This document shows positions 16,689-59,772 of a stretch of DNA of 64,000 nt, in pieces. Each line of letters begins with the position of its first letter. Positions within the stretch are counted from its first letter, which is position 1. A program made the position numbers and the translations under genes. The notes beneath the pieces were generated by a model. That model did no database searches and was not told the origin of the DNA. It was given only the letters and a program-made list of their open reading frames with translations. Origin of the DNA: Longimicrobiales bacterium (lineage in GTDB: Bacteria > Gemmatimonadota > Gemmatimonadetes > Longimicrobiales > Gaopeijiaceae); contig CBDFIQ010000002.1 in assembly GCA_965248195.1 (NCBI GenBank), positions 3,072,001 to 3,136,000 of the forward strand, read 5' to 3'.

Positions 16689-16765
16689 TTCAGGACTCCC
16701 AAGCCGGAGGTTCCAACGGCCATCTGATGACGACGGATAGGCGATAATAGGTGGCGGGCCCTGAT

Positions 16766-16817
16766 CGAGGAAGCGTATGACACCGAGGAAGCGCATGACA
16801 CCGAGGAAGCGTATGAC
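16766..16817. repeat. Intergenic 18-bp tandem repeat, about 2.9 copies (CGAGGAAGCGYATGACAC)
   Basis: Read directly; no spacers. Confidence 0.9.
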
Positions 16818-16819
16818 GT

Positions 16820-18241
16820 TTACCGGATGAGGTGCCCGTATACCTCGGTGTACCGATGGGCGATCTCCTTCCAGTCGTACTCGCCACGGACGAGCGCCAG
16901 TGCGTTTATGCCGCGGCGTTTTCGTTCTGTCTCGTTCATTAGCGCCTGGTGCAGCGTCGCCGCCAAGGAATCCAGATCGTCGACTTCGCAAAGCCAGCCG
17001 TTCGCACGCGGTCCGGTTTCGACGACGAAATCGAGGGGCCCGCCGCTTCGGGTCGCGATCACTGGAACTCCCGTCGCCATCGCCTCGATGTAGACCTGGC
17101 CAAACGGTTCGTTGTAGGAGGGTGCGACCAAAACGTCGGCGAGGTTGAGTCCTCGAGAAAGAACATCGTGCGGCAACCACCCGCAGAAAAACACGTTCGG
17201 CAAGTCGAGGGAGCGGGCGACCGTATGAGGATGCTCGCCTTCCCATTCACCGGGCATGCCTCCCCAGACGAGCAGGTTGAACGGGGGGTGACTGTTGCTG
17301 TCGAACGATTGGTTGACCCGCGAGACGGCCTCGAGCAACAACGGAACGCGTTTGAAATCGAGAAAGCGACCCACGAATATCAGAAGCGGCTTCAAATCGC
17401 CTGATTCGTCTTTGAGCCTCTCGATGTCGGACTCGTCGTAGCGCACGTTCCCCGGGACACCGCCTTCGTCCCAGCCCTGAGGCTCCTCCACCAGGATCTT
17501 GCGGAGAAAACTCCATTTTTCGTCTTTGGACCAATTCAGCGGCTGGAACAGAGACGTGTCCACGCCATTCGGGATCGTGGTGATGTGGTTCTCGTCGATC
17601 GCGAGGCGTGCGATCGCCCGCTCACGAATGTCCGGGCTGATAGCGGCAAAGTGGTTCGTTATGTCGACTGCGTCGCTCAGGATGCCACGCCCAACGTGGT
17701 CCAGCTCATCGGGGCTACCAACTTCCCTGCTCAGCTCGTCGAGACGCTCCAGCATCTTGATCTCCGTCCCATGCAGTTGCGTCAGCTTGGGCACCGAGGG
17801 AAAGAGTTGCGCCGCGGCACCATGCGCGTGAGTGAGATGGTGGAGGTGGAGAAGGTCGGGCTGGAAGCGCTCTCTCACGTCTTCGAATACTCCGGTCCAG
17901 CACCGCAACAATGCTACATACTCGGCGTCCGTCAGCTTGTAGAAAACACGGTCGGGTACGCCGGATTTGTCTTCATAGCTCGGGTGAAACGGGATTTTCC
18001 AACCGTCGGATAGCGGATCTTCACCCTGTTCGAACCCGCGCCACGCGTCGGTATAATCGACCAAGGTCAGTGGGATTTCACCGAAAAAAAAGTTAGCGTC
18101 GTGTTGCGGGTCGCCGTCGTCCAGCGTGCCGGTGATCAGACGCACTTCGTGGCCCATCTGAATCAGGGCGGTCGACAGATAGCGGGCCACCTGCGCGCTT
18201 CCCCCCCTCGGATAGAAGATGAGGCTCATCAGGATTTTCAT
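16820..18241 (-). CDS. Glycosyltransferase family 4
   Basis: PRGGSAQV, HGTE, PNGVD, FVGRFLDFKR and EPFGQVYIE motifs. Start ATG 18241. Confidence 0.9.
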   Translation of the reverse strand: MKILMSLIFYPRGGSAQVARYLSTALIQMGHEVRLITGTLDDGDPQHDANFFFGEIPLTLVDYTDAWRGFEQGEDPLSDGWKIPFHPSYEDKSGVPDRVFYKLTDAEYVALLRCWTGVFEDVRERFQPDLLHLHHLTHAHGAAAQLFPSVPKLTQLHGTEIKMLERLDELSREVGSPDELDHVGRGILSDAVDITNHFAAISPDIRERAIARLAIDENHITTIPNGVDTSLFQPLNWSKDEKWSFLRKILVEEPQGWDEGGVPGNVRYDESDIERLKDESGDLKPLLIFVGRFLDFKRVPLLLEAVSRVNQSFDSNSHPPFNLLVWGGMPGEWEGEHPHTVARSLDLPNVFFCGWLPHDVLSRGLNLADVLVAPSYNEPFGQVYIEAMATGVPVIATRSGGPLDFVVETGPRANGWLCEVDDLDSLAATLHQALMNETERKRRGINALALVRGEYDWKEIAHRYTEVYGHLIR

Positions 18242-29324: not shown

Positions 29325-30781
29325 TGAAGCTGTCCCAACCGTAGTTGAAGGTTCCTGATAGGGGAGAAAGAAAAGTGGTGGCTCCGGGGGTCCCGGGCCG
29401 ATAGGCTCGGGTAGGCAAAAACCCCAACACGGAGCCACCACGATGAAGAGAACGTACGAGGTAAGGGATCGGGCGGACAAGCGCGCGATCAGGGAGTTCC
29501 TGAAGCGGGAGGGGCAGTTTCTGCTTCCGATGCTTGAGCTCGTGGAGCAGACGGAGGTCGCGATCGACGAAGTCATCCAGGTGATGGGACGAGCGACGAT
29601 CGAAGCGGTGCTGGAGATGAGCGCCGAGGGTGTGGCAGGCGTGAAGCAGGCAGGTCGGTCACGAGCGGAAGACGACACGGTGTGGTATGGCCGGCAGGGT
29701 GGTGTGGTTTACCTGTCGGACCGGAAGGTGCGTGTGGAGCGGCCACGGCTCAGGCGCCGGGGCGCCGGGGAGGGTGGCGAGGTCGAGGTGCCGGCGTACG
29801 CAGCGATGCGGAGACCGGGCGCCGTGGCGGATCGGATGCTCGAGGTCCTGATGGCGGGGGTGAGCACGCGGAAGTACGGCCGTGTGATCGGTGAGATGGC
29901 CGACACGGTCGGGGTGAGCAAGTCGGCGGTGAGCCGTGAGACGGTCGAGGCCTCGGAGCGCGTGCTGAAGGAGCTGATGGAGCGCCGGCTGGATGCGTGG
30001 GACCTCCTGGTGATCTACCTGGACGGGATCCAGATGGGCTCGCACCACGTGCTTGCTGCGGTAGGCGTGGACTCAGACGGAAAGAAGCACGTGCTGGGCG
30101 TGAGGGAAGGAGCGAGTGAGAACGCCGAGGTGACCAGCGCGCTCCTAGAGGATCTGGTCGAGCGCGGCCTGGACCCGGGCAGGCGGCGGCTGTTCGTGAT
30201 CGATGGCTCGAAAGCGCTCAGGAAGGCGATCGAGAAGGTGTTCGGCCAACGTCACCCCATCCAGCGCTGCCGCAACCACAAGCTCCGCAACGTGCTGGGT
30301 CATCTGCCGAAGGATCAGCATCCTCAGGTGAAGGCGGCGTTCCGGGCGGCGATGAAGCTGGACGCGAAGCAGGGCGAGCAGAAGCTCGAGCAGCTCGCCC
30401 GATGGCTCGAGCGCGACCACCCCTCGGCCTCGGCCAGCCTACGCGAAGGCCTCAGCGAGATGTTCACGATCAACCGGCTCGGCCTCCCGCCGCGGCTGAG
30501 GAAGTGCCTGGGCTCGACCAACCTGATCGACAGCACCCACTCGGGCGTAAGACAGAAGACCCGCAGGGTGACCAACTGGAAGAACGGAGCGATGGCCTTG
30601 CGCTGGGCTGCGGCCTCGTTCGTGGAGACCGAGAAGAGCTACCGGAGGATCATCGGCTACGACCAGCTCTGGATGCTCAGGGCCCACCTCGACGACCATG
30701 AACCGGTTGCCGAAATGAGAAAGGCAGGCTAACAAGGAGACTCTCCGGAGCCACCACCTTCAACTGTCAGCGGGACACCAT
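29325..30781 (+). mobile_element. IS256-family element A
   Basis: 8-bp target duplication CCGCATTC (29317-29324 and 30782-30789); terminal IRs TGTCCC-N6-AGTTGAAGGT. Ends uncertain by 1 nt. Confidence 0.93.
29443..30732 (+). CDS. IS256-family (Mutator) transposase
   Basis: GVSTRK, YLDG, VIDG, QRCRNHK and STNLIDS motifs. Confidence 0.95.
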   Translation: MKRTYEVRDRADKRAIREFLKREGQFLLPMLELVEQTEVAIDEVIQVMGRATIEAVLEMSAEGVAGVKQAGRSRAEDDTVWYGRQGGVVYLSDRKVRVERPRLRRRGAGEGGEVEVPAYAAMRRPGAVADRMLEVLMAGVSTRKYGRVIGEMADTVGVSKSAVSRETVEASERVLKELMERRLDAWDLLVIYLDGIQMGSHHVLAAVGVDSDGKKHVLGVREGASENAEVTSALLEDLVERGLDPGRRRLFVIDGSKALRKAIEKVFGQRHPIQRCRNHKLRNVLGHLPKDQHPQVKAAFRAAMKLDAKQGEQKLEQLARWLERDHPSASASLREGLSEMFTINRLGLPPRLRKCLGSTNLIDSTHSGVRQKTRRVTNWKNGAMALRWAAASFVETEKSYRRIIGYDQLWMLRAHLDDHEPVAEMRKAG

Positions 30782-31069: not shown

Positions 31070-32445
31070 GGTCAAGTCCCGATTTGTGTGTAAAAGCGGA
31101 GGAAGCTCCTCGCCTTCGGCTAGGCTGCTTGGGCGACCTCCTGTTTCTGGAGGAGTGAGAGGTCGAGGTAACGCCGGTCGCCCCAGACGTGTGTGGTCCT
31201 GAGTGCGACGGCCGTGATGAGCCTGAGGGCGCTGGCCCGGTCCGGGAAGGCGCCGGCGGCCTTGATCCTGCGTTTGATCTCGCCGTGCAGCCGCTCGAGG
31301 CTGTTGGTGGTACGCAGCCGGGGCCAGTGCGCCTCGGGGAACGCGTAGAACTGCGTCGCTGCCCCGAAGCCCCGCTCCAGGACCTCCACGGCCTCGGGCA
31401 GCTCCTTCTTCCAGCGTGCGCCGAACTCGCCCAGGAGCTTCTTCGCCTCGGCGAGTCCGGATGTCTGGAAGATCACCGAGACCTCACGCGCCACGCGCTT
31501 GCGTAGGCGGTGGGGGACCCTCGCCCCCACATTACGCTGCAGATGGACCGTACACCTCTGACGGCGTGCCTCGGGCAGGAAGCGGCGGACCGCAGCTGCC
31601 AGGCCTGCGTGCTCATCGGCGATCACGAGCTCGACACCGCCGAGGCCGCGGTCCTGGAGTTGCTCGAGGAGCTCCGACCAGCTCTGCTGCGACTCCTCAG
31701 CGCCCAGCGTGACGGCCAGGAGCCGTCGGTGACCCTCAGGGCCCACTGCATACGCCACGAGCGCACTCACGTTCTCGACTTTGCGGGCCCAGCGGGCGTC
31801 CAAGAACGTGGCGTCCAGGTACAGATAGGGGTGAGGCCCCTCGATCGGCGCACGGCGCAGCCCTTCCACGGCCTCGTCGAGCCGTTTTGCCACACGACTC
31901 ACCGTCGAGCGCCCAACACGCTCGCCCATCAGCGCCTCGGTGACGTCGCCCATCTTGCGCTGTGACACGCCGCTCACATACGCCTCGACCATCATCTCGT
32001 CGAGCTCGGGGCTCCTGCGCTGGTAGCGGCCGATCACGTCGGCCGGCGAACCGTTGTCCCGGCTCCGGGGCATGGCGACCTCGATCTGCCCCAGGCTCGT
32101 CAGCAGCCGCCTCAGGTATGTGCCGTTCCTATGGTCCTTCCGGCTTCCCACCCGCTCGAAGCGGCGTGCACCTACCATGGCCTTCAGCTCCTCTTCCAGC
32201 ACCATCTCGAGCGTCAGCCGGATCGCGCCTTGAAACAGCTCGCGCAAATCATCGCGTAGCTCGTCTTGCGTGGCCCGACCGATCTCCACAATCTCTTGCA
32301 TCGGAAGCTCCTCTCCGGTTCCGAGCCTGCTCTGCAGACCCGGACTCCCGGGTTCATGTGACAGTGAACAACAACAGAGGAGCTTCCGTTTTTCTTTCCC
32401 TCCTGTCCAGCTTATCCGCTTTTACACAAATCTAGGGACACTACC
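31070..32445 (-). mobile_element. IS256-family element B
   Basis: 8-bp target duplication CGGGCTAG (31062-31069 and 32446-32453); about 31-bp imperfect IRs GGT-N3-GTCCC...TGTGTAAAAGCGGA. Confidence 0.95.
31120..32301 (-). CDS. IS256-family transposase
   Basis: RNG, GVSQRK, YLDA, IADEH, QRCTVH and TTNSLERLHGE motifs. Confidence 0.95.
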   Translation of the reverse strand: MQEIVEIGRATQDELRDDLRELFQGAIRLTLEMVLEEELKAMVGARRFERVGSRKDHRNGTYLRRLLTSLGQIEVAMPRSRDNGSPADVIGRYQRRSPELDEMMVEAYVSGVSQRKMGDVTEALMGERVGRSTVSRVAKRLDEAVEGLRRAPIEGPHPYLYLDATFLDARWARKVENVSALVAYAVGPEGHRRLLAVTLGAEESQQSWSELLEQLQDRGLGGVELVIADEHAGLAAAVRRFLPEARRQRCTVHLQRNVGARVPHRLRKRVAREVSVIFQTSGLAEAKKLLGEFGARWKKELPEAVEVLERGFGAATQFYAFPEAHWPRLRTTNSLERLHGEIKRRIKAAGAFPDRASALRLITAVALRTTHVWGDRRYLDLSLLQKQEVAQAA

Positions 32446-37080: not shown

Positions 37081-37406
37081 TTAATCAGATTCATTCAGAC
37101 CCGCAACACTGAACACGACATGGAACGGCTTACAGCAGATGACGACACTCATCTGCGCCACCAGGTCCACGCTAGCAGGGACGTCGTAGTTCTGGTTTCC
37201 GACGTTGCCCTTGAGCCTGCCCAGTTCCACGTAGCCCTGGGCGTCCAGCTCGCCCCTGGTTGAAGGGTCAGGGTGGCCGGCCAGCAGGACGCGCAGATCT
37301 GGTCCGTTGGTAACCGTGAAATCCTCCAGTCGGAGTAACTGAGAGCCATCCTTCAGGTGGTAGATCGATGCCCGCCCGTTTCCCCGGTGAAACGAGTCGG
37401 CGTCCC
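37081..37406 (-). pseudogene. DM13-domain protein, 5'-truncated fragment
   Basis: RDADSFH.G.G, LRLEDFTVTNGPDL and LGRLKGNVGNQNY motifs. No native start; abuts the P460 fragment. Confidence 0.8.
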
Positions 37407-37569
37407 GACCCAAGAGGACAGCGACAGCGGCCGCGGCTGGTTTTGGTACGAGGCCACCAGCACCGAGCCAGGTGCCAACCCGTTCATGTCCGGCAACGGG
37501 ATACCGCTTTGCGCGGGATGTCACTCGAGGGGCAGCGACTATCTCCTCACAAGGTGGCCGCTTAGATAG
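37407..37569 (+). pseudogene. Orphan 163-bp copy of the 3' end of the cytochrome P460 gene
   Basis: Aligns without gaps to 41673..41835 with about 10 mismatches; retains CAGCH and the stop codon. Confidence 0.9.
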
Positions 37570-40088: not shown

Positions 40089-40544
40089 ATGCGTAACCGA
40101 CACCGTTCATCAGCTGTCTCCGTCATCCTCGGCGTTATCGCGTTGGGCGTCCTGCAGAGTAGCCCAGCCCTGGGCCAGCAGAAGTCGCTCTACGAGCGAC
40201 TCGGCGGCTACGAAGCGATCTCAGCCGTGGCGCACGAGTTCGCCGGAAGGCTCTTCACCGATCCGCAGGTCGGCCCCTTCTTCAGAGGGATGGGAACGGA
40301 CACCCGGCAGTCGTTCATCCAGAAAAACATCAACCTGCTCTGCAACGTCACGGGTGGGCCGTGCAAGATCCTCAGCCGTCCCGCCAGAACCGTTCACACA
40401 GGGCTCGGCATCACGGAATCCGACTTCAACGTCGTTGTGAACCACCTCGTGGATACCCTGGACGGATTCAAGGTACCCACTACGGAGAAGCAGGAGCTGC
40501 TCTCGATCATCGGCACACTCAAGTCGGACATCGTTGGGCTCTGA
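40089..40544 (+). CDS. glbN: Group I truncated hemoglobin with signal peptide
   Basis: SLYERLGG, PFF and TGGP motifs; proximal His in VHTGLGI; FNVVVNHL; signal peptide ending SPALG. Confidence 0.9.
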   Translation: MRNRHRSSAVSVILGVIALGVLQSSPALGQQKSLYERLGGYEAISAVAHEFAGRLFTDPQVGPFFRGMGTDTRQSFIQKNINLLCNVTGGPCKILSRPARTVHTGLGITESDFNVVVNHLVDTLDGFKVPTTEKQELLSIIGTLKSDIVGL

Positions 40545-40563
40545 ATGCCTCGACCTCGGCCAG

Positions 40564-40614
40564 GGCCGGGCGGCCGCTTAGCCAAGGCCGGGCGGCCGCT
40601 TAGCCAAGGCCGGG
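40564..40614. repeat. 22-bp tandem duplication (GGCCGGGCGGCCGCTTAGCCAA, about 2.3 copies)
   Basis: Read directly. Confidence 0.9.
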
Positions 40615-40668
40615 TCTTCTGCCGCTAATTCAGTTGCGATGATTCCTTGGAGCGATAAGGGGTGTGAT

Positions 40669-41835
40669 ATGACTGGCATGGGAACGAGACCGACGAAGGC
40701 CACGCTACATCGGGTCTCGCTCGCGGCTGTGCTTGTGGGAGTATTCCTGACGCTGGCCGCAGCTCTACCTGGGGTTGCCCAACAAGCTCCGGATTTTCCG
40801 AAGCCGTCGTTCAACGAGGATGGCAACCTGATCCGCCCGGACGTGAGCTATCGGCAGTGGGTTTACGTTGGCACACCGCTCACGCCCAACGACCTCAACC
40901 CACCAGAGGCGCCGTTCCCAGATTTCCACAACGTCTACATCCATCCAGATGACTTCGATCACTACAGTCGAACGGGCGATTTCCCACATGGAACCGTGAT
41001 CGTCAAGGAGCTTGTGAGCGTCGGCTCGAAGCAGGCGGTCAGTGGTAACGGCTACTTCATGGGTGAGTTCATCGGGCTCGAAACCACGATCAAAGATGCG
41101 GAACGTTTTCCGGAGGAGCCTGGCAACTGGGCGTATTTCAGCTTCGGCCACAGCTATCCCCTGGCTGACGAGGCTGCGGCTCTGCCGCCCGCCGCTTGTA
41201 ATGGTTGTCATGAAGCAAGTGCCGCGGACGACTTCGTGTTCACCCAGTACTACCCGATCCTTTCAGCGGCTAAGGGACCTGGTAAAGCGGGTAACCCGAA
41301 CAGTGGTCAGGTAATGGACCAGGACAATCCAGAGTTCCAGGCCATTAGAACGGCGATGGCAGATGCACTAGAGGCGGGAATGGGTGGGACCGCTCCGAGG
41401 GGACGTGCGCCAGGCGACGTGCCGACCGCAGACGGGGCCTTACATGATTATCTGCGGGCCGGTACCTATACCGAGATGCCGGCCGTGGAGGCGGGTCGCC
41501 ATCCATCGGCGGGGCCCCACGCGAGATTCGGTGCGCCGGTGCGGGTCTTCATCAACGCGACGCTGGCGGCGTCATTGGAGGCGGGAAATGAGCAACACCC
41601 GGTCGGCTCGGAGGCCGTCAAGGAGATGTATCTGACCGACGGCACCCTCGAGGGGTGGGCGGTGATGGTCAAGACCCAAGAGGACAGCGACAGTGGCCGC
41701 GGCTGGTTTTGGTACGAGGCCACCAGCACCGAGCCAGGTGCCGACCCGTTTATGTCTGGCAACGGGATTCCCCTTTGCGCGGGATGTCACTCGACGGGCA
41801 GCGACTATCTCCTGACAAGGTGGCCGCTCAGGTAG
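40669..41835 (+). CDS. Two-domain cytochrome P460-family protein (CytL-like domain plus a divergent P460 domain)
   Basis: Signal peptide. Domain 1: WVYVGTPLTPNDLN, VIVKELVSVGSK, SGNGYFMGE, PGNWAYF, CNGCH, VFTQYYP. Domain 2: VKE, WAVMVK, GWFWYE, CAGCH. Confidence 0.88.
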   Translation: MTGMGTRPTKATLHRVSLAAVLVGVFLTLAAALPGVAQQAPDFPKPSFNEDGNLIRPDVSYRQWVYVGTPLTPNDLNPPEAPFPDFHNVYIHPDDFDHYSRTGDFPHGTVIVKELVSVGSKQAVSGNGYFMGEFIGLETTIKDAERFPEEPGNWAYFSFGHSYPLADEAAALPPAACNGCHEASAADDFVFTQYYPILSAAKGPGKAGNPNSGQVMDQDNPEFQAIRTAMADALEAGMGGTAPRGRAPGDVPTADGALHDYLRAGTYTEMPAVEAGRHPSAGPHARFGAPVRVFINATLAASLEAGNEQHPVGSEAVKEMYLTDGTLEGWAVMVKTQEDSDSGRGWFWYEATSTEPGADPFMSGNGIPLCAGCHSTGSDYLLTRWPLR

Positions 41836-44525: not shown

Positions 44526-45827
44526 TTGAGAGCACGCACCGGTACCGTCGCCTTCGTGGCCATCCTGGCGGTTCTTCCTGCGTCATCCGCGACGGCACAG
44601 ACCATCGAGCCCGAATACCTGGAGGAGATGGAGGCCCTGGCCGCTGAGCAGGCGGTGATGAACGCGCTGAGCCGGGTGGAGGACCTCGACCCGTGGGGCA
44701 TGGACCTCCTCGTCGAGCTCACCGAGATCCCGGCACCGCCTTTCATGGAGGAGGTACGCGCCGCCCGTTTCGCCGAACTCCTCCAGGAGGCGGGAGCCGA
44801 CAGCGTATGGATCGACGCCGAGGGGAACGTGCTCGGGTTGAGGCGTGGACGGGGCGGGGAACGGACGGTTGCATTTGGCGCCCACCTGGACACGGTCTTC
44901 CCGGAGGGAACAGACGTCACGGTACGCATGCGGGGTGATACGCTCTACGCGCCGGGCGTGGGTGACGACACGAGGGGCCTCATCGTCGTCCTCACCGTCC
45001 TGAGAGCGATGGAGGAGGCCAACGTCGAAACGTCCGACGACGTGCTCTTCATCGGCACCGTGGGAGAGGAGGGTCTGGGCGACCTCCGCGGCATGAAGCA
45101 CCTCTTCAGGGATGGGGCCGACCCGATCGACGCGTGGATCTCGATCGATGGTGGCGGTCTGACCCGCCTGATCACCCAGGGACTGGGCTCCGTTCGGTAT
45201 CGAGTCACCTTCGCCGGACCTGGTGGTCATTCGTGGGGTGCTTTCGGCATGGCCAATCCGGCGCACGCCTTGAGCCGGGCGGTCCGCCTCTTCCAGGACG
45301 CGGCAGACGCGCTGACGCGCACCGGACCCCGGACGAGCTACAACGTGGGGAGGATCGGAGGAGGAACGTCGGTCAACTCCATCCCGTTCGACTCGTGGAT
45401 GGAAGTCGACATGCGGTCGGTGAGTCCCGAGAGCTTGATGCGTATCGAGCAGGCCTTCATCGACGCGATGAACCGGGGCTTGGAGGGCGAGAATGGCTTG
45501 CGCCGGGAGGGCCCGGCGCTCGAGGTGGAGTTGGACCGGATCGGAGACCGGCCCTCCGGCGAGCTACCCCCGTCCACTCCCGTGATCCAACGTGCCCTCG
45601 CCGCCACGGCCCAGTTCGGCGTCTCCGGCACGCTGGGCCGCTCCTCCACCAACTCCAACCTCCCCATCGCTCTAGGCATTCCGGCCGTAACGCTGGGCCG
45701 AGGCGGTAGGGGTGGAGAGGGCCACGCCCCAGGCGAATGGTGGATCAACGAGGACGGCCATCTGGCCATTCAACGCGCGCTGTTGGTGGTAGCTGCGGAA
45801 GCGGGGCTGGTCGGCATCATCCCTTGA
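44526..45827 (+). CDS. M20/M25/M40 family metallo-hydrolase, secreted
   Basis: AHLDTVF, GDD, GEEG, GGHSWG and H..GEW motifs. Start uncertain. Confidence 0.9.
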   Translation: MRARTGTVAFVAILAVLPASSATAQTIEPEYLEEMEALAAEQAVMNALSRVEDLDPWGMDLLVELTEIPAPPFMEEVRAARFAELLQEAGADSVWIDAEGNVLGLRRGRGGERTVAFGAHLDTVFPEGTDVTVRMRGDTLYAPGVGDDTRGLIVVLTVLRAMEEANVETSDDVLFIGTVGEEGLGDLRGMKHLFRDGADPIDAWISIDGGGLTRLITQGLGSVRYRVTFAGPGGHSWGAFGMANPAHALSRAVRLFQDAADALTRTGPRTSYNVGRIGGGTSVNSIPFDSWMEVDMRSVSPESLMRIEQAFIDAMNRGLEGENGLRREGPALEVELDRIGDRPSGELPPSTPVIQRALAATAQFGVSGTLGRSSTNSNLPIALGIPAVTLGRGGRGGEGHAPGEWWINEDGHLAIQRALLVVAAEAGLVGIIP

Positions 45828-45879: not shown

Positions 45880-47448
45880 CTAACGGCGAAGGACCCTCCC
45901 GGCCCGCACGTCGCTGAAGACCCCGTCGTCCACGGCCACGAGTCCGTTGATGATCACGAAGTCGATGCCATCCGGATATTGGTGCGGATCCTGAAAGGTC
46001 GACCGGTCGACCACCGTCTCGGGGTCGAAGACGACGATGTCCCCGATCATGCCCTCCGAAAGAACTCCGCGCTCCGACATTCCCATGTGATCGGCCGGGA
46101 GTGAAGTCATCTTGCGCACCGCGTCTTCGAGCGTGAGCACACCCCTCTCGCGCACGTACTCGCCGAGGACGCGTGGAAAGGTCCCGTACCATCGAGGATG
46201 TGGCTGTCCCTCACCGGGCTGTACGAGTCGCCCATCGGACGCGATCGCGGTCATGGGGTGTCGCATGATCGACTCGACATCGGCCTCATCCATCACGTGG
46301 TAGATCGCGCTGGCGCCGCCCCGGCGTATCGCGTCGATCACCAGCTCCGCGCCGGTCTCCATGGTAGGCGGCAGTCCACGCATCTCCGCCCAGTCACGGA
46401 GCGTCTGGCCCTCCAACTCGGGCATCCACGGCACGAGCGCGAACTGGACCCGTGAGAGGTCGTTGCCGCCCCGATCGTTGACGAGGATGAAGACGATCCC
46501 GTCCACGATGCTGTCACGGAGCATCGGGTGTTCGAGGCGCTCCAAGAACGCCTCGTCGCCGCCGGCCCTCGCCCAGGGCGGCACCAGGATCCCGATTCCC
46601 GAGTATGACGCCGTGTAGGGATACTGGTCGATACGGATCTTTCGACCGGCAGCGTTGGCGGAATCCACCATAGCGAGCGTGCGGTCCGAGGAGCCCCACA
46701 TCGGTTGACCGACGACCTTGTGGTGCGTGAGCACGATCGGCAGGTCTGCGCGGCGCCCGATCTCGATCGCTTCGGCGACACCGGCGATTAGCTCGAGCCC
46801 TTCCTCACGCAAATGGGAGGTGTAGACACCGCCCGCCTCGCCCGCGACCTCGGCCAGCGCCACCACTTCATCGACGTCGGAGAAGGCGCCGGGTAGATAC
46901 CTCAGGCCGGTCGACAATCCCCAAGCGCCCTCGGCCATCGCCTGCCGCACCATCTCCTGCATTTCAGCCAGCTCATCCGAAGTCGGAGGTCGGTCCTCCA
47001 TTTCCATGACTCGCCGCCGAATGGTGTTGTGTCCCACGAGCATCGCCACATTGATCCCCACGCCGATCGTTGCAGCGGAATCCAGATAAGCCCCCATCGG
47101 CCAGGGTGCGCTACCGTCGGGGCCACCCACGACGGTCGTCACCCCCTGTCGTGCCTTGCTTTCACCCTCGGGAAGGCGGAGCAGCGGATCGAGGTGCGAA
47201 TGGATGTCGATGAAGCCCGGCGCCACGATCTTGCCGGTCACGTCGATCACACGTACCGCGCCGGCACGCTCGACGCCCCTCCGCGAGACGGCCACGATGC
47301 GGTCCCCGCGGATGGCCACGTCGGCTCTGAATCGATCCGAGCCCGTGCCGTCGATGACCGTTCCGCCAACGAGGACGACATCGTACTGTGGCGGATCGCA
47401 GGCGCAAACGGCCACGGCCACCCAAGCCAGGAGGTATCGTATCCGCAT
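45880..47448 (-). CDS. N-acyl-D-amino-acid deacylase (D-aminoacylase), lipoprotein
   Basis: PGFIDIHSH, SHLRE, DQYPY, ASDG and HPRWYGTFPR motifs. Confidence 0.92.
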   Translation of the reverse strand: MRIRYLLAWVAVAVCACDPPQYDVVLVGGTVIDGTGSDRFRADVAIRGDRIVAVSRRGVERAGAVRVIDVTGKIVAPGFIDIHSHLDPLLRLPEGESKARQGVTTVVGGPDGSAPWPMGAYLDSAATIGVGINVAMLVGHNTIRRRVMEMEDRPPTSDELAEMQEMVRQAMAEGAWGLSTGLRYLPGAFSDVDEVVALAEVAGEAGGVYTSHLREEGLELIAGVAEAIEIGRRADLPIVLTHHKVVGQPMWGSSDRTLAMVDSANAAGRKIRIDQYPYTASYSGIGILVPPWARAGGDEAFLERLEHPMLRDSIVDGIVFILVNDRGGNDLSRVQFALVPWMPELEGQTLRDWAEMRGLPPTMETGAELVIDAIRRGGASAIYHVMDEADVESIMRHPMTAIASDGRLVQPGEGQPHPRWYGTFPRVLGEYVRERGVLTLEDAVRKMTSLPADHMGMSERGVLSEGMIGDIVVFDPETVVDRSTFQDPHQYPDGIDFVIINGLVAVDDGVFSDVRAGRVLRR

Positions 47449-51143: not shown

Positions 51144-52514
51144 CTACCCCCCACCTTGTTCCTCCTCCAGTCGAGCGATCCGCTGCTCCCGCTGGGCCTT
51201 CAGGTATTCGAAGTCCTCGTCGCTCAGATAGGTGGTGCCGATCCACATGTGCGACATCTCATCGGCGCTGCGCCTGCCGAAGATCACCCACTGGTCCGGA
51301 TCAGGGTTCACCGGATTGGCGGCCGTGTTGTCATACCAGGCCGTGAGAACGAGCACCGTGCCCTTGGGCAGCAACGGCATCACATGGTCTTCAAAGAGGT
51401 AGTTGATGTGCCATTCGCCGTTCCAGTTCACTTTGCACAGAATCTCCAGGTGACCATCGGGGAAGATCGCTTCCATCGACTGCGATGCTCCGCGCAGGTG
51501 CATGTGGCCCCGGCAGCTGTGGAGTCGGGTATTTTCTTGCAGCACGTGGAACCCCTGCGTCACCGCACGCCCGTGGGGCGGGAGGACCACCTGCTGCACC
51601 GTCAGGCCGCGGCCGCGGCCCTCGGCGCTTCCGAGCTGCCGCTGCGAGCTCCAGGAGACATCACCTTCCGTCGCGAAACGCGGGTCCTCACCTTCCGGGT
51701 AGAACCATAGTCCGACTTCGACGACGTCGTCATCGATCGCCACACCGTTGGGGTAGTAGTGGATGTTGAAGCTGAGGCTGTTTCCCGGCGCGATCAGCCG
51801 CCCTGTATTCTCTGGGAAAATATCGAAGGGCTTGCCGATCCCATAGTTGGAAAAGCCGCCCCGCCCATCCTCCGTAATGAGGCTGCTGTTCGCGTGATGG
51901 ACGACGCCCTTGCCCAACATGGAAGGTTTGGTCTCGTTCGCCATGACCCACCGAGGGCCGTCGAGTCCCTCCACCTCCACCTGATGAGGCCACCAATTGT
52001 CCAGGCCGCTCGCCGGCACGTCGAATGGGCTCGACTTGATGATCAGATCCGGCGGGCCGAACTGCGTTGCCAGCCGCCACTCGGCGCCCGACGGGATCTC
52101 GGGGACGGGCGGAGCGTGCGTCATGTCTCCCTGCGGCGCTCCGGCGTCGACCCACTGGACGACCCTCTGGATTTCCTCTTCCGAGAGCGAGACGTCGTTC
52201 TTGAACTCCTGAATCCCCACGTCCTGGTCGACGTGCCACGGCGGCATCTGGCGCGTCTCGACTTTGACCTTGATCAATGGGGCGTAAAGCCTGGCCGTCT
52301 CGTAGTCGAGGAGCGACATGGGTCCGATGCCTTCCGGCTGATGACACCCCACGCACGACTCGTATAAGATAGGCGCGACGTCCTCGGCCCACGTGGCGTC
52401 CTGTCCGAACGCGGGCTGCGGCTGCAGCACGGCCATCAGCAAGAAGATCGGCGCGGCGATCCAGAGGCCATGCCACGCCCGAGGGCGGTGGCTCTGTTTT
52501 GTCATGCGGTCCAT
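51144..52514 (-). CDS. Cytochrome c fused to a copper type II (PHM/DBH-like) monooxygenase domain
   Basis: Signal peptide; CVGCH...MPPW heme domain; CuH-type HH (VVHHA) and IHY; CuM-type HMH and DEM. Confidence 0.85.
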   Translation of the reverse strand: MDRMTKQSHRPRAWHGLWIAAPIFLLMAVLQPQPAFGQDATWAEDVAPILYESCVGCHQPEGIGPMSLLDYETARLYAPLIKVKVETRQMPPWHVDQDVGIQEFKNDVSLSEEEIQRVVQWVDAGAPQGDMTHAPPVPEIPSGAEWRLATQFGPPDLIIKSSPFDVPASGLDNWWPHQVEVEGLDGPRWVMANETKPSMLGKGVVHHANSSLITEDGRGGFSNYGIGKPFDIFPENTGRLIAPGNSLSFNIHYYPNGVAIDDDVVEVGLWFYPEGEDPRFATEGDVSWSSQRQLGSAEGRGRGLTVQQVVLPPHGRAVTQGFHVLQENTRLHSCRGHMHLRGASQSMEAIFPDGHLEILCKVNWNGEWHINYLFEDHVMPLLPKGTVLVLTAWYDNTAANPVNPDPDQWVIFGRRSADEMSHMWIGTTYLSDEDFEYLKAQREQRIARLEEEQGGG

Positions 52515-52533
52515 GATGTGTTTCTCCTTTTTA

Positions 52534-53436
52534 TTATGGGGTGACGGTAACCTTCACGTAGTTGTTCGTATAGCAGCAATGCTGCACCATCGCAGAAAGC
52601 GTCTGGAGCCCGGTGACCCGGAGCATGTACTCCCCCGGCTCGCTGAAGCTGGCGGTCGTCGTCACCTGGCCCCCTTCCGCCGGAACCTCGAACCGTCGCT
52701 CCTCAAAGTCGACGGCGACAGGCCCCTGGTGCTCGAACCAGAAAAGGAGGAAGTCACGCTCCGTGGGGGCGAACGGCTCGAGCCACACGCTCAACGGCAA
52801 CGGCTCCCCCACCGCCACGGTGAGCGGACCCAGGGTTACGCCGGATCGCCCTCTCCCCCTCGGGCCCGACGGGTCGAACGCGAGCACCGGTGCGACCGGC
52901 GCACTCGTGCTGGCTTCGAGATTTTCGATGCGACTGCCTTCTACCGTGAGGCGCCCCGGGACCCGGATCGTCTTGCCCTTGTAACGCAAGGTCCAGACGA
53001 CATCCTCAGTCCCGAAATCCGCCGGTACCTCGACGGTGAAGACGGCCTGGTGTCGATAATGTCTGCTTTGTCCGTCCTGCCCCCGGGGCGGCGCCGTCAT
53101 GAAGTACGTCGGCTGCATCCCGTTGTATTCGGCCGGCTCGAGGAAGTTGTCGGGCCCGATCGGGATCTGGAACACCTCCTCGAAGTTCATATTGAAGTAA
53201 CTGAAAGAGAGGCTGTACGTGCCATCCGGATTCGGGTACCAACCCTCGAACAGGGGAATGAGTGGCTGATCCCGGGGCCTGACGGTCACCAGGTTGTATT
53301 GGTAAGGTGTGAGGGCCCACCATTCGTCGAATTGACGATCCTGCCCTCCGAACTGGTCCACCTGGCCCACGAGAGGAGCCCATGGCACCATCGTGAGTGC
53401 GGTCACCGCCACAACGACGTTACGCGCCCTCTTCAT
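52534..53436 (-). CDS. Conserved hypothetical secreted protein
   Basis: PLFEGWYPNPDG..FSYFN, IPIGPDN, FSEPGEY and C-terminal CC motifs; GGAGGAGG RBS before ATG 53436. Confidence 0.8.
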   Translation of the reverse strand: MKRARNVVVAVTALTMVPWAPLVGQVDQFGGQDRQFDEWWALTPYQYNLVTVRPRDQPLIPLFEGWYPNPDGTYSLSFSYFNMNFEEVFQIPIGPDNFLEPAEYNGMQPTYFMTAPPRGQDGQSRHYRHQAVFTVEVPADFGTEDVVWTLRYKGKTIRVPGRLTVEGSRIENLEASTSAPVAPVLAFDPSGPRGRGRSGVTLGPLTVAVGEPLPLSVWLEPFAPTERDFLLFWFEHQGPVAVDFEERRFEVPAEGGQVTTTASFSEPGEYMLRVTGLQTLSAMVQHCCYTNNYVKVTVTP

Positions 53437-53825
53437 CCAAACCTCCTCCCTTTCGATCGTTTCTGCTCTTCTCATACGGCCGTCACCCCATCCTGTTCCG
53501 ATCGCTGAGGTGCCGTGCATCGAGACGAACGTAAAGGATTGCTACATTTCTTTGTGTAATCCTCCAACCTACAGGGTTGGCACACCCAGTCAAATCCTGC
53601 TGAGGTTCCCCGGGCCAATGAGGGGAAGCCTATCCGGCAGGTGCCGCGGATCTAGATCGAAGGCTGTCCGCGTGAGGCCATTGACGAAACGGTATGACAA
53701 CGCTCACTGTGCCACTGTCCGGAGCGTGCCTTCATGGGCTGCCGACTCCGAGCCCCGGTCATTCTGGGAGGCGCTGCTGAGCGCCCGATCCCACCGTTGA
53801 ACATCCGTTGAAGGCGGGAAGAGAT

Positions 53826-56090
53826 ATGAACTACCGCAAATTGACGCCAGTTCCTTCATACCAGCAATTATCGAGAAGGGCGCCGGTATCAGCGAGGAGA
53901 CATCAAACCCCCGGTCCGCTCCGGACGGCCTGCCTCTGCATTGTCTCTGCGCTCTCGCTGAGTGTGGTGAGCCTATGGGTGACCCCGATCTCCGCCTTCG
54001 GCCAGGAGCCTTCGGGGTCCTACACCAACGCCCAGGCCGAAGCCGGGGCGACTGTATATGAGTCCACCTGCTCGGTGTGTCACCTGACCGATTTCCAGGG
54101 CTCGTTCGAGGCCCCCGAGTTGGCGGGCCCGAACTTCCGAAACACGTGGGGTGGCCGGCGGGTGGGCGACCTACTCGTGCTGATCGAGGCCACCATGCCG
54201 CCCCAAGCCGCCGGGTCTCTGAGCGCTGAGCAGGTCGCCTCGGTCGTGGCCTATATCCTCCGAGCGAACGAGGTTCAGGCGGGCGGAACCGAGTTGAGCC
54301 TCGCTTCCGCCGTAACGGTGATCCCGGGTGCGGAGCCGGCGGCCGTCACGACCGCGGCGGGTATCCCTCCGATTCCCGGTCGGGTCGGGACGACCTTTTC
54401 GCCGGAGGCGGTGCAGGCTCCGCCTGAATTTCTCGGCGCGATATCTGAAACTCCTGCTGGTATCACGGAGACCTATCGAGCGCCGGAGGGATACACACCG
54501 GTGTCGAACGCCGAATTGGTCTCGCCTCCCGATGGAGACTGGCTGCACTGGCGAAATTCCCCCGGATCGACCGGTTTCAGCCCGCTGTCGCAGATCAATA
54601 CGGAGAACGTTCACCGGCTGCAGCTGGCCTGGGTCTGGGCGTTGCCCGATGGAAGCCGTTACCGCACCGCGCCTCTCGAGAGATCCGGCATTCTCTTCCT
54701 GACGACAGCCGGCGGCTCCGTGCAGGCGCTAGACGCTACCGACGGCACCCTCCTCTGGGAGCACCGCAGAAAGGACGCCCGCATCGGTCAACGGGTGCAA
54801 AGCGTCGCTCTCTGGGAGGACCTCGTTCTTCTGTCCACTCCCGACGGAGCGATGGTAGCCTTGGACGCTCCGACCGGAGTCGTTCGCTGGGAGACCCCGC
54901 GGATGGGGTTCGGTAACACCGCGGGACCCATCGTGGCTGACGGGAAAGTGATCAACGGGGCCAACGGCTGCGGCAGATTCATCGAACAAAAGTGTTTTGT
55001 CAGCGCCCACGACGTCCGTAGTGGCGAGTTTCTTTGGCAGACGGAGGTGATCGCTCGGCCCGGCGAGCCGGGCGGGGACACCTGGGGCGAGCTCCCGTTC
55101 GAGATGCGGGCGGGGGCGGACATGTGGAATGGCGTCAGCTGGGATCCCGATTTGGGCTTGGTCTACATCGGCACCGCGCAGGCGAAGCCGTGGGTGGCCG
55201 TCAGCCGAGGGCTCACCACCGCCGACTCGACGCTCTACGCGAACTCGACCCTGGCCCTCGATGTGGAGACCGGACGCATCGTGTGGTACCGGCAGCACGT
55301 TCCGGGCGAGTCCTTGGACATGGACGAGGGATTCGAGCAGGTCCTCGCGGACATCGACGGCGTGCCCGCGCTCCTCACCATCGGCAAACATGGTGTGCTC
55401 TGGAAGCTCGACAGGCGAGACGGGACCTTCCTGGGTATGAAGGAAACGGTGTTCCAGAACATTCTCTCGATTGATCCCGAGACAGGCGCGGTGCAGTACC
55501 GGGAGGACATCGCGAACGCCAGGGTGGGTGACTGGGTGTCGGTGTGCCCCTCCACGGCTGGGGGGAAGAACTGGCAGGCGACCAGTTACTCTCCCGATGC
55601 GGGCCTCATCGTCATCCCGCTAAGCCAAAGCTGCATGGATATGACCGCACGCGAAGTCGTCCTGGAGGCGGGTGGCGGTGGCAGTGGGGGGGAGCGCGCG
55701 TGGAAAGAGATGCCCGGTACCCGCGGGATGTTCGGAAAGCTCGCGGCGTTCGATGTTGCGACGATGGAGGAGGTGTGGAGTGTCGAACAGAGAGCCCCCT
55801 TCCTCATGGGAGCCTTGACGACCGCGGGTGGACTCGCGTTCGCCGGATCCTATGACAGGTGGTTCAAGGCGTATGACATCCAAACGGGTGACGTGCTCTG
55901 GCAGACCCGGCTTGGCACGTCGGTCCAAGGTTTCTCGATGACCTTCGAGGTGGACGGCGTGCAGTACCTTGCGATGACCGCAGCGCGCAACGGTGGGAGT
56001 CCCTGGCGGGTAGCGACCTTCCTGGCGACGGAGTTCGTGAGTCGTCCTCAGGCAAATGCCCTTTACGTGTTCCGGCTAGGCCAACCATAG
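53826..56090 (+). CDS. N-terminal cytochrome c fused to a PQQ-binding beta-propeller dehydrogenase
   Basis: CSVCH...[19 protein letters not shown]; propeller Trp repeats; LDMDE; DGVQY. Confidence 0.9.
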
Positions 56091-56147
56091 GCTGGCGCCG
56101 ACCCCATGCGGTGGTTACCTGTTCTCTACACCAATGAGGAGGGAATC

Positions 56148-57398
56148 ATGAGTTCATTGTTTCGGTGTTCCAGGCTCCTGACGCTGGCTGCCGTCCTTGG
56201 GGTCGTCTCGACCACGGGGTGTGCACAGCAGGAGACGGCGTCAGGAAGCGAGGCCAGCGCCATGAGCAGCATGCAGGAAGGCTCGCTGGTGCATGATGGG
56301 CAGGAGCTATTCGGCCATTACCACCAGCCTAGTCCGTTCCCGCAGCCTCTGCCGGACGACGCGCACTCACACGACGGCTGGACTTGGGGGTCCATGGGGG
56401 CCGTCTTTGCCGAGAGCCCGGACAAGATCTGGCTCGCCATGCGGGGAGAGCTCCCGCTCCCGGAGGGGACAGATCCGTGGACACCCTACGCCCTCCTGAA
56501 CCCCTCCCGGGGAAACGCCTCGCCCAACGACGACAACGGAATTCGCGGGTATGAGCGGCGGTATCTGCACGTCATGATCGCCGTGAATTCCGAGGGAGAG
56601 CTGGTTGAATATTGGCCGCAGCATGACCAGCTCTTCGACGTACGGGGCGGGCGCGGACCCCACAAGATCAAGATGAGCCCCTACGACGACGAGAAGCATA
56701 TCTGGGTCGTCGATGACAACCTCCACCAGATCCACAAGTTCACCTACGACGGGGAGTTGGTGCTCACGCATGGAGAGCAGCTCGTACCCGGACGGGGGCC
56801 GAACAACTTCTCGCGCCCGACGGACATCGCGTGGCTACCGGACGGCACCTACTTCATCAGTGACGGCTACGTAGGAACCCGCGTAGCGAAGTTCGACGCC
56901 AACGACAACTTCATCATGGACTGGGGCCAGGCCCCGGCCGATCCCGCCAACCCGGGTCCCAACGAATTCAACACTGTCCACGCTATCACGATCAGCGCGG
57001 ATCGGTTGATCTACGTGTCGGATCGGGCTCACGCCCGGATCCAGGTGTTTGACGAAAACGGCGACTTCCAGTTCCTGTTCCCGACTGGCCAGCGAGGCGA
57101 GTCTCTCCCGTACGCGATCGAGATCCTTCGGGATCCGTCTGGAGAGGAGTTCCTTTGGGTCGCGGACGGCAGCTCGAACCGAATGCTGAAGTTCGATCTA
57201 GACGGGAATTACCTCTATGGCTGGGGCACCCCTGGCGACGATTACGGGCACTTCAACGGCCCGCACTCGATCACGACCGACCAGGACGGCAACCTTTACA
57301 TTTCGGAGGTGTTCGCCGGGCGTGTACAAAAGTTCGTCCCAAGGTCCGGTGCCGACCCTGCCAAGATCGCGGGACAGCAGCTGCGGGAGTGGAACTGA
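56148..57398 (+). CDS. Peptidyl-alpha-hydroxyglycine alpha-amidating lyase (PAL)-like NHL-repeat lipoprotein
   Basis: TTGC lipobox; GPH, PTD..SDGY, VHAI..SDRAHARIQ and GPHS motifs. ATG 56148 has a GAGGAGG RBS. Confidence 0.85.
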   Translation: MSSLFRCSRLLTLAAVLGVVSTTGCAQQETASGSEASAMSSMQEGSLVHDGQELFGHYHQPSPFPQPLPDDAHSHDGWTWGSMGAVFAESPDKIWLAMRGELPLPEGTDPWTPYALLNPSRGNASPNDDNGIRGYERRYLHVMIAVNSEGELVEYWPQHDQLFDVRGGRGPHKIKMSPYDDEKHIWVVDDNLHQIHKFTYDGELVLTHGEQLVPGRGPNNFSRPTDIAWLPDGTYFISDGYVGTRVAKFDANDNFIMDWGQAPADPANPGPNEFNTVHAITISADRLIYVSDRAHARIQVFDENGDFQFLFPTGQRGESLPYAIEILRDPSGEEFLWVADGSSNRMLKFDLDGNYLYGWGTPGDDYGHFNGPHSITTDQDGNLYISEVFAGRVQKFVPRSGADPAKIAGQQLREWN

Positions 57399-58479: not shown

Positions 58480-59772
58480 TCACTGGGACGCGCCGGCGCG
58501 GAAGCGCGCGCCCAGCGCGTCCCGGTCGACCTCCATGCCGCGGAGATAGACCGCGGCGATCCGCCTCGTGTTCGTGATTTCGTCCAGGGGGTTCGCATCC
58601 AGGACGATGAAGTCCGCGCTTTTACCCACCGCCACCGTGCCGATATCGGTCACCTGCATCAGCTCGGCCGAGTTACGCGTTGCCGCGACGATGACCTCGG
58701 CGGGGGTCATTCCGGATCTCACCATATCCTCCATCTCTTGATGAAGGGCCCACGGCGTGCTTCCGTCCGTGCCGAACGCAATCCTCACTCCCTCTTGGTT
58801 GAGCCGAGCCAGGTTACGCGCCTGGATGCCGAACGACTCCTGGGCTGCCGGCCGATCCCTCGACGCCTCCTGCATCTCTTGCAACTCGCCGGCGGGGACC
58901 GTCCCGCTCAGCCAGCCGAGGTCTAGCGCCACCCCCGGGTTCGGGAGGTTCGGAACCAGGACCACATTGGGGCGCTCGCTCCAGAGGGCGACGAGCTCAT
59001 CGTCGATATCCCGGTCGCGCACGCCGTGGGCGAACGCGTCGATCCCAGCCCGGAGAAGCCCCTTCGCGTCCTCGAGGGTGAATATGTGGGCCGTGACACG
59101 GAGTCCGTGCCTGTGGGCCTCGTCGATGACGGCGCCGTACAGCGCCGGCGAGAGTTTCTCATATTGGCCGTTGCGATCGTCGACCCAGATTTTCACGAAG
59201 TCCACCTCCTGCGCGGCCAGCTCCTGCACGGCGGTCCGCGCCTCCTCCTCGCTCGTGATCCAGAAGGGGACATCCGACCGCCCAGGCTCGGGGGTGGTGA
59301 TCCCGCGCCCCGCAGAGCGTGACCGGGCGCCGTCGGGAACCGCCTCGTCCCGCATCTCGAACGGGACGTCGCCCGTGTCTTGGCCCAGACTCACGGCCAG
59401 GCCGGCCCCGTAGTACGCCAAGTGCTGGAGTTGAGCGACCCGATCGTCACGCGTGGACGCCAAGTGCATGTGGGCGTTGACGACCGCCGGCATGACGGTC
59501 TTGCCGCTGAGATCCACGCGGGTCGCGCCCCCCGGAATCTGCACGTCCGCCCTTCGTCCTGCCTGCATGAAGCGGTCGCCCGCGACGACGAACACCGCGT
59601 CCTCGATCGGTGCGCTTCCGTCCCCGACGATGAGGCGAGCGCCCTCGAACACGGTCACGGCCGCGTCGCTACCGGCCTCCGGACCGGTGCAACCGGCCAT
59701 CAGGACGGCACCCAGGGAGAGCACGGCGGACATCACGACCACAATGTGGGACTCACTCTTGGCTCGGCGCAT
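58480..59772 (-). CDS. Amidohydrolase family lipoprotein
   Basis: MAGC lipobox; NAHMH, KIWVDDR, TAH, FAH, FGTD and LDANPL motifs. Confidence 0.9.
   Translation of the reverse strand: MRRAKSESHIVVVMSAVLSLGAVLMAGCTGPEAGSDAAVTVFEGARLIVGDGSAPIEDAVFVVAGDRFMQAGRRADVQIPGGATRVDLSGKTVMPAVVNAHMHLASTRDDRVAQLQHLAYYGAGLAVSLGQDTGDVPFEMRDEAVPDGARSRSAGRGITTPEPGRSDVPFWITSEEEARTAVQELAAQEVDFVKIWVDDRNGQYEKLSPALYGAVIDEAHRHGLRVTAHIFTLEDAKGLLRAGIDAFAHGVRDRDIDDELVALWSERPNVVLVPNLPNPGVALDLGWLSGTVPAGELQEMQEASRDRPAAQESFGIQARNLARLNQEGVRIAFGTDGSTPWALHQEMEDMVRSGMTPAEVIVAATRNSAELMQVTDIGTVAVGKSADFIVLDANPLDEITNTRRIAAVYLRGMEVDRDALGARFRAGASQ

Follow-up and report, generated by a model that had tools for sequence, protein, structure and literature searches.

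For a gene pair of a Longimicrobiales bacterium, P0001 and P0002, the reading that we favor and hold to be somewhat probable is that of a periplasmic two-copper monooxygenase with a c-heme electron inlet, encoded by a two-gene module of which the genome holds about 25 copies, and with the neighboring cytochrome c-pyrroloquinoline quinone (PQQ) dehydrogenase, P0003, as the likely electron donor. The pair lies in a 64,000-nt stretch of contig CBDFIQ010000002.1 (hereafter, the window; coordinates are window positions unless a genome or locus is named), where positions 51144-57398 carry two divergent gene pairs: P0002 followed by P0001 on the reverse strand, separated by 19 bp, and P0003 followed by P0004 on the forward strand, separated by 15 bp (Table 1). 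All four proteins have signal-peptide-like N-termini. P0001 resembles peptidylglycine alpha-hydroxylating monooxygenase (PHM), the core of peptidylglycine alpha-amidating monooxygenase (PAM), as well as dopamine beta-hydroxylase (DBH), and P0004 resembles the lyase of PAM (PAL). In animals, PHM, DBH, and related enzymes work in secretory granules and depend on ascorbate. In what follows, G000 denotes the bacterium's own genome, G011 a same-genus genome, and L-numbers sequence loci (77 metagenome loci in the set; L018 is from G011).

The heme c-fused protein P0001 and its family

The analysis supports P0001 as a heme c-fused two-copper protein of the PHM/DBH fold, with copper binding predicted. 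The AlphaFold model (pLDDT 82.5) has the two-domain beta-sandwich catalytic core of the copper type II monooxygenases, and the 27 Foldseek matches listed down to rank 28 are all DBH or PHM (probability 1.00). VIA aligned residues 143-435 of the model with residues 45-328 of rat PHM (1sdw) at a Z of 19.4 and a root-mean-square deviation of 3.1 A over 247 residues. Over the matches to PHM (other structures of which are 1phm and 1opm), Z ranged from 16.9 to 19.4, and it was 18.9 against DBH (4zel; model residues 52-430), where the same catalytic core follows an extra N-terminal domain; the next unrelated fold, PNGase F, scored a Z of 8.1.

The predicted metal ligands of P0001 follow PHM in order and approximate spacing. 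According to the available text of PMC12164859, CuH of PHM is bound by H107, H108, and H172, and CuM by H242, H244, and M314, a set that functions in O2 activation and C-H hydroxylation, while Arg240 binds the carboxylate. P0001 presents the same HH...H and HxH...M succession, with Arg335 two residues before the HxH, as in PHM; the position of PHM Asn316 is taken by His422. In the cytochrome domain, the predicted axial heme ligand Met90 sits in an MPPWH motif. Ten key residues (C54, C57, H58, M90, H206, H207, H252, H337, H339, and M420) do not vary across 32 aligned relatives (47-86% identity), and all ten are kept in each of the 25 full-length paralogs of the own genome. Among 76 metagenome homologs, each key position is kept in 73-76, the exceptions being gaps in cut open reading frames (ORFs) and a single H207R. 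This set includes every feature that a preliminary description of the locus had named for the putative monooxygenase, namely HH plus H and HxH plus M copper ligands and an N-terminal c-heme. The same description had proposed superposition on rat PHM as a check, and the predicted model superimposes at the level of the domain; the equivalence of the individual ligands to those of PHM is argued from order, spacing, invariance, and fold.

The family of P0001 is large, comprising 2,891 clusters (50% identity) at E<=1e-30 in a profile search of 1.84 billion representatives, and same-genus genomes hold 2 to 34 family matches each. Given its expansion to 25 full-length paralogs in the own genome, the caveat of paralog number becomes the central test of any linkage claimed for these genes. 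The residue at the position of Arg335 varies by clade: it is R in 12, Q in 6, E in 6, M in 1, and Y in 1 of the own-genome sequences, and Q in 41 and R in 35 of the metagenome set. In a FastTree phylogeny of 101 sequences, the R type forms one clade. The spacing of Arg335, equal to that of PHM Arg240, suggests a carboxylate-bearing substrate for this clade.

Several arrangements of family members were also recorded. The reverse strand of the own genome carries a tandem array of four monooxygenase-partner modules in 13 kb (G000:C1:1187696-1200925), and two near-identical module copies lie at G000:C1:1275502-1279659. An AhpC/TSA-redoxin domain precedes the heme-copper core in 17 of 27 long representatives scanned (P0373, P0438, P0441, P0449, P0456, P0461, P0466, and others), some of which add EF-hand, ankyrin, TPR, esterase, or 3-keto-disaccharide hydrolase domains; the redoxin domain was found in none of eight distant own-genome paralogs.

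The partner P0002 and the quinoprotein P0003

P0002 is a near-obligate neighbor of the P0001 family. The preliminary description had correctly placed it upstream of the monooxygenase gene as a CC-bearing hypothetical protein, and overlooked this association. In the own genome, 22 of 25 monooxygenase genes have a P0002-family gene within 500 bp on the same strand, against 0.38 expected (random placement, 5,000 trials). The same adjacency, again on one strand, holds for 45 of 47 evaluable monooxygenase genes in the 77 metagenome loci, with the P0002-like gene upstream in 25 cases and downstream in 19, and the orthologous pair is preserved in G011. Across 31 related genomes, the monooxygenase family occurs in 17 and the P0002 family in 16, every one of them among those 17. 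Natural fusions of the two proteins, in both orders, are found in 4 of 150 representatives (P0377, P0381, P0383, and P0389); at L131:9068-11287 (+), a single chain joins P0002- and P0001-like parts with no signal peptide between them.

The P0002 ORF can be extended back to position 53520, although relatives begin at the ATG at 53436. The predicted model of the protein consists of two beta-sandwich domains (pLDDT 81.6) and includes an invariant vicinal Cys pair. Pfam holds no family for it, Foldseek returned only generic tandem immunoglobulin-like matches (TM about 0.25) and no specific PDB fold, a wide VIA search peaked at a Z of 7.2 for the C-terminal domain, and the ESM Atlas yielded only unnamed clusters. 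P0002 likely forms a complex with P0001, in which it might bind substrate or take part in redox chemistry via its Cys pair. That Cys pair, together with the redoxin domains of the long representatives, which hint at peroxide or thiol chemistry, could also be read as signs that P0001 is not a hydroxylase but a copper-heme redox protein of another kind (an oxidase or peroxygenase, for instance), with substrate electrons leaving by way of the heme or with use of H2O2. We consider this very improbable, because all the PHM-type ligands are invariant, the CuM methionine among them, and in PHM this set serves hydroxylation (PMC12164859, available text).

P0003 combines a PQQ propeller with a cytochrome c domain, as in quinohemoproteins (Pfam PQQ, PF01011, 1.2e-61; Cytochrome_CBB3, PF13442, 1.4e-08). 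Its nearest solved structures are PQQ-dependent alcohol and sorbose dehydrogenases (9m2c, 4cvb, and 4mh1; E about 1e-86, end to end); against the NCBIfam methanol/ethanol family TIGR03075, it scores 316.1 bits, below the cut-off of 480. The analysis supports cytochrome c-PQQ dehydrogenases as recurrent operon partners of the Arg335 subfamily, of which P0001 is a member. Same-strand operons of P0002-like, P0001-like, and cytochrome c-PQQ genes with gaps of a few bases occur at L104, L106, L110, L111, L114, L115, L117-L119, L122, L125, and L126, and the P0003-like copy in a further such operon, at L124, is cut by the contig end. Under strict flank requirements, 7 of 23 evaluable loci have a P0003-like gene within 1.5 kb. 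Within 2.5 kb, such a gene accompanies 16 of 46 R-type, 1 of 47 Q-type, and none of 8 other members, these being raw counts, uncorrected for short contigs and relatedness. The link recurs in at least six branches of the R clade in the FastTree phylogeny, and the N-terminal CxxCH is present in 13 of 13 operon-linked dehydrogenases from metagenome loci. In the own genome, three of the six close P0003 paralogs lie within 5 kb of a module (0.42 expected). The marine loci L106, L115, and L119, which carry the three-gene operon, also have, upstream on the other strand, a pair encoding a YtkA-like protein and a di-heme cytochrome c peroxidase, and two more PQQ dehydrogenases.

By the mechanism that we propose, P0001 and P0002 would hydroxylate a periplasmic substrate with O2, and the c heme of P0001 itself would replace ascorbate as the electron inlet to CuH. 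For the Arg335 subfamily, electrons would likely come from the adjacent dehydrogenase, which would oxidize a co-substrate or the alcohol product; P0004 would not be required, though some of the products may be acted on by it. There is a precedent for such a route in fungi, where a PQQ-dependent pyranose dehydrogenase drives a lytic polysaccharide monooxygenase (LPMO) by electron flow from PQQ to heme to copper (PMC5960967, in the portion available). The preliminary description had suggested PQQ-to-heme-to-Cu flow for this locus, and it gains some support from the operons of the R clade, against which stands the lack of such a neighbor in most family members.

That lack also bears on another explanation, which we rate as possible but rather doubtful: a general periplasmic cytochrome c pool would feed P0001 and P0002, and P0003, instead of acting as the reductant, would serve the same pathway or island as an ordinary catabolic dehydrogenase, perhaps by oxidizing the alcohol product and delivering the electrons to the respiratory chain. 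Such a pool would be compatible with the 49 PQQ-propeller matches in the own genome, where label shuffling shows clustering at the level of islands only, and with the several further PQQ dehydrogenases and di-heme peroxidases in metagenome loci. It accounts less well for compact operons on one strand, whose genes lie a few bases apart and which recur in several branches of the R clade, or for linked dehydrogenases that all carry a cytochrome c domain of their own, as one would expect for a dedicated heme-to-heme transfer.

Several results weigh against our reading of the module as a copper monooxygenase supplied by P0003. On Pfam, P0001 gives a weak cytochrome c signal only, with no match to the copper-monooxygenase models PF01082 and PF03712; phmmer found no match to it in the PDB, and the A1 profile matched there only in the heme region (hydrazine synthase alpha, E 0.19), so that no sequence bridge from P0001 to PHM was obtained. 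The copper-monooxygenase assignment of P0001 stands on predicted structure and motif order. As to the donor, a P0003-like neighbor is absent at 16 of the 23 evaluable loci and at L099, the closest metagenome relative of P0001, and 9 kb separate the G011 orthologs of P0003 and P0001. Adjacency, moreover, fits an electron donor and the next step of a pathway equally well. Traces of the copper-monooxygenase models do appear elsewhere in the family: PF03712 is matched weakly by 19 of the 32 relatives (best E 4.7e-4), and the nearest named ESM-Atlas clusters of the copper domain bear it (20 of 30 matches); PF01082 is absent from the 15 Pfam families listed for the 32 members. A single distant paralog passes the PF03712 cut-off (23.9 bits vs. 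23). In this gene (G000:C2:2208305-2210107), the sole own-genome copy to do so, Tyr replaces Arg335, and the C-terminus is extended by a TPR region, through which it matched only TPR proteins.

The PAL-like lipoprotein P0004 and its linkage to the module

P0004 has the six-bladed NHL propeller and the residue set of PAL. Its residues 193-411 align with rat PAL (3fvz) in one stretch of 220 residues (E 3.4e-21), with identities at Y255 (in DGY), H292, R307 (in DR), and H387, positions that we take to be the zinc ligands and catalytic residues of PAL. The equivalence of H186 to the first His of PAL is only deduced, since H186 falls just outside the printed alignment; a search of the PDB with the A2 profile again gave a PAL alignment that stops short of it. 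All five residues are invariant among 28 relatives, in keeping with the three His, the DGY Tyr, and the DR Arg of the preliminary description. TRIM-type NHL domains score equal to or above PAL against P0004, and one P0004 relative is named peptidylamidoglycolate lyase by its source. P0004 is probably a working metallo-lyase or hydrolase in its own right.

The preliminary description had presented the PHM-like and PAL-like genes as the two halves of one amidation machine, and this pairing is not upheld. By that pathway, P0001 would hydroxylate a glycine-ended peptide or N-acylglycine at its alpha-carbon, P0004 would cleave the resulting carbinolamide to an amide and glyoxylate, and PQQ/heme electrons would replace ascorbate. 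Its appeal lies in the residue sets that P0001 and P0004 share with their animal counterparts, in the spacing of Arg335, and in proximity within the own genome: the two genes are 3.6 kb apart here, a module is found within 5 kb of four of the five PAL-like paralogs that are closest (0.32 expected), and one PAL-like/monooxygenase pair is separated by 102 bp on the same strand. Six of 18 metagenome loci also have an NHL gene of some kind no more than 5 kb away, which in L111, L114, and L125 comes immediately behind the PQQ gene, and the PAL-like subfamily, present in 12 of 31 related genomes, is confined to those with the monooxygenase family.

Comparison across genomes speaks against such a pathway. 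Around the closest relatives of P0004 (80 loci, 53-92% identity), a P0001-family gene lies within 10 kb in four loci (4 of 47 among loci of at least 15 kb). Five such genomes were checked; four carry 8-28 monooxygenase-family matches elsewhere, and the fifth has a 62%-identical PAL-like gene and only a heme-domain match to the family. The G011 ortholog of P0004 is 16 kb away from that of P0001 and 4 kb from that of P0003. No PAL-like-subfamily gene was found in the 18 evaluable metagenome loci around P0001 relatives, nor any NHL-domain fusion in 150 P0001-family representatives. The commonest neighbor of P0004 relatives is instead a TonB-receptor-like outer-membrane protein (19 of 80 loci), followed by a second NHL protein (16 of 80), and the confinement of the PAL-like subfamily to monooxygenase-bearing genomes concerns mostly one genus.

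The preliminary description had called for linkage statistics corrected for paralog number. In the own genome, 7 of 25 monooxygenase genes have some NHL gene within 5 kb, where 2.8 would be expected (P 0.035); with the labels of NHL and PQQ genes shuffled among positions, 6.97 were expected for the 7 observed and the excess was gone, so that NHL genes are not preferred over PQQ genes. Most NHL neighbors, furthermore, are of a second type, with His at 255, the PAL Tyr position, and Glu at 387, the position of the last His. Genes of this type were recorded in the own genome (C2:3150116-3151960, C1:1257380-1258441, and C1:1271265-1272332) and at L099, L105, L111, L116, L147, and L157, the register across repeated blades being tentative. 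The small excess and its loss on shuffling point to catabolic islands in which the genes cluster, a few of the pairs being truly tight, rather than to a fixed two-enzyme pathway. We consider the PAM-like pathway improbable; P0004 is probably a facultative island neighbor here and not a fixed part of the P0001-P0002 module.

A more elaborate proposal joins these strands. The Arg335 clade, its partner, and the cytochrome c-PQQ dehydrogenase would act as a self-reducing periplasmic oxygenase, in which a carboxylate substrate is hydroxylated and the quinoprotein oxidizes a co-substrate or the alcohol just formed and returns two electrons from heme to heme to copper, with no need of ascorbate or NAD(P)H; with a PAL-like lyase, the system would be a catabolic counterpart of animal PAM, active on glycine-ended or N-acyl substrates. 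We advance this as a speculative scheme with a low chance of being correct as a whole. The genes that flank P0004 in the window offer few clues to a substrate, since any one of them neighbors P0004 relatives in at most 9 of 80 loci. DUF5916 proteins are encoded after the NHL gene of L111 (10944-13274) and, in G011, in the gap that separates the P0003 ortholog from that of P0004 (L018:12468-15332); homologs from the cluster of the G011 protein occur near P0004 relatives in 5 of 80 loci.

Locus context and relation to known systems

Re-translation bears out the four ORFs of the preliminary description at the positions given in Table 1, as well as its order of a PQQ dehydrogenase gene upstream of the PAL-like gene on one strand. 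The nearby amidohydrolases that it had mentioned are likewise present, encoded by two genes. Further flanking genes encode a cupin, an FAD oxidoreductase, a dienelactone hydrolase, and DUF1552/DUF1592 proteins, and the closest genomes are labeled Longimicrobiales or Gemmatimonadota. A scan for promoters and terminators gave nothing above chance level.

Table 1. Positions of the genes and predicted functional residues in the window.
Feature	Position	Strand	Description
P0001	51144-52514	-	456 aa, exported; cytochrome c domain about 38-140, predicted PHM/DBH-fold two-copper domain 143-435
Met420 of P0001, in DEMSH	51255-51257	-	Predicted CuM methionine; invariant 32/32, 25/25, 76/76
R335-G-H337-M-H339 (RGHMH) of P0001	51498-51512	-	Predicted CuM His pair; Arg spacing as PHM Arg240 (R-x-H-x-H)
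H252 of P0001	51759-51761	-	Predicted third CuH ligand
H206-H207 of P0001	51894-51899	-	Predicted CuH ligands
CVGCH (C54, C57, H58) of P0001	52341-52355	-	Heme c motif, from translation; invariant 32/32, 25/25
P0002	52534-53436	-	300 aa, exported; two beta-sandwich domains; 19 bp upstream of P0001
CC of P0002	52573-52578	-	Invariant vicinal Cys pair
P0003	53808-56090	+	Exported; N-terminal cytochrome c and PQQ-type eight-bladed propeller; likely start ATG 53826
CSVCH of P0003	54069-54083	+	From translation
P0004	56106-57398	+	PAL-like six-bladed NHL propeller lipoprotein; likely start ATG 56148
Cys39 of P0004	56220-56222	+	Lipobox Cys; nearly invariant among relatives
M20 peptidase	44526-45827		Flanking gene
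Amidohydrolases	45880-47448; 58480-59772		Flanking genes

Elsewhere in the window, positions 37081-37524 (-) encode a small protein whose DM13 "electron transfer" domain matches PF10517 at E 2.9e-15, adjoining genes for a sigma-54 activator and a thioredoxin, and a bacterial globin gene followed by that of a 398-aa protein with a cytochrome P460 domain occupies 40089-41835 (+). Two Mutator-family transposase genes, at 29443-30732 (+) and 31120-32301 (-), stand beside a Na/H-exchanger gene whose Pfam match spans only positions 2-236 of the 375-position model. A second PQQ-propeller protein, of 793 aa and with a long N-terminal region, is encoded at 14865-17246 (-), alongside a TPR protein.

In the P0001 family, the two-copper core known from PHM and DBH is joined to a covalent c heme and a dedicated second protein, and sometimes to a quinoprotein in the operon. 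P0001 shares about 15% identity with PHM, from which it differs in being bacterial and periplasmic, and in having an N-terminal c-type cytochrome, a constant separate partner, and no fused or conserved PAL beside it; ascorbate is an unlikely reductant for such a protein. Compared with DBH, the N-terminal domain of P0001 is a heme c cytochrome rather than a DOMON domain (the domain carried by DBH according to the available text of PMC12164859), there is no dimerization domain, and Arg335 hints at an acid, and not an amine, as the substrate. P0004, for its part, departs from PAL (3fvz) in being a lipoprotein, in having about 150 additional N-terminal residues, among them the further invariant His residues H89 and H155, and in being neither fused to nor genetically coupled with a PHM-like gene.

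The match of P0003 to the type II quinohemoprotein alcohol dehydrogenase 1kv9 (668 residues) covers residues 14-524 of that chain only. The heme domain of 1kv9 is C-terminal, whereas the cytochrome c domain of P0003 is N-terminal. The fungal PQQ-dependent pyranose dehydrogenase and LPMO are alike in the route proposed here, from a PQQ dehydrogenase through its own cytochrome domain to a copper monooxygenase, and differ, in the available portion of PMC5960967, in a b-type heme within an AA8 domain, a mononuclear LPMO, and fungal secretion; P0001 and P0003 both have heme c, and the copper enzyme would be of the two-copper PHM type. A literature search, with subscription journals outside its coverage, returned no study of a bacterial heme-fused PHM-like family or of bacterial PAL-like enzymes; in the accessible part of one preprint (10.1101/2025.10.30.685615), PAL appears only as an analogy.

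If members of the family are active monooxygenases, they would show how copper chemistry of this kind obtains electrons without ascorbate, and would provide a tractable bacterial model for the long-debated electron transfer between the two coppers. The variable residue (R, Q, or E) at the Arg240-like position might serve as a handle on substrate classes. For Gemmatimonadota, Acidobacteriota, and marine Gammaproteobacteria, such enzymes would point to an unrecognized route by which these bacteria attack dissolved organic compounds oxidatively.

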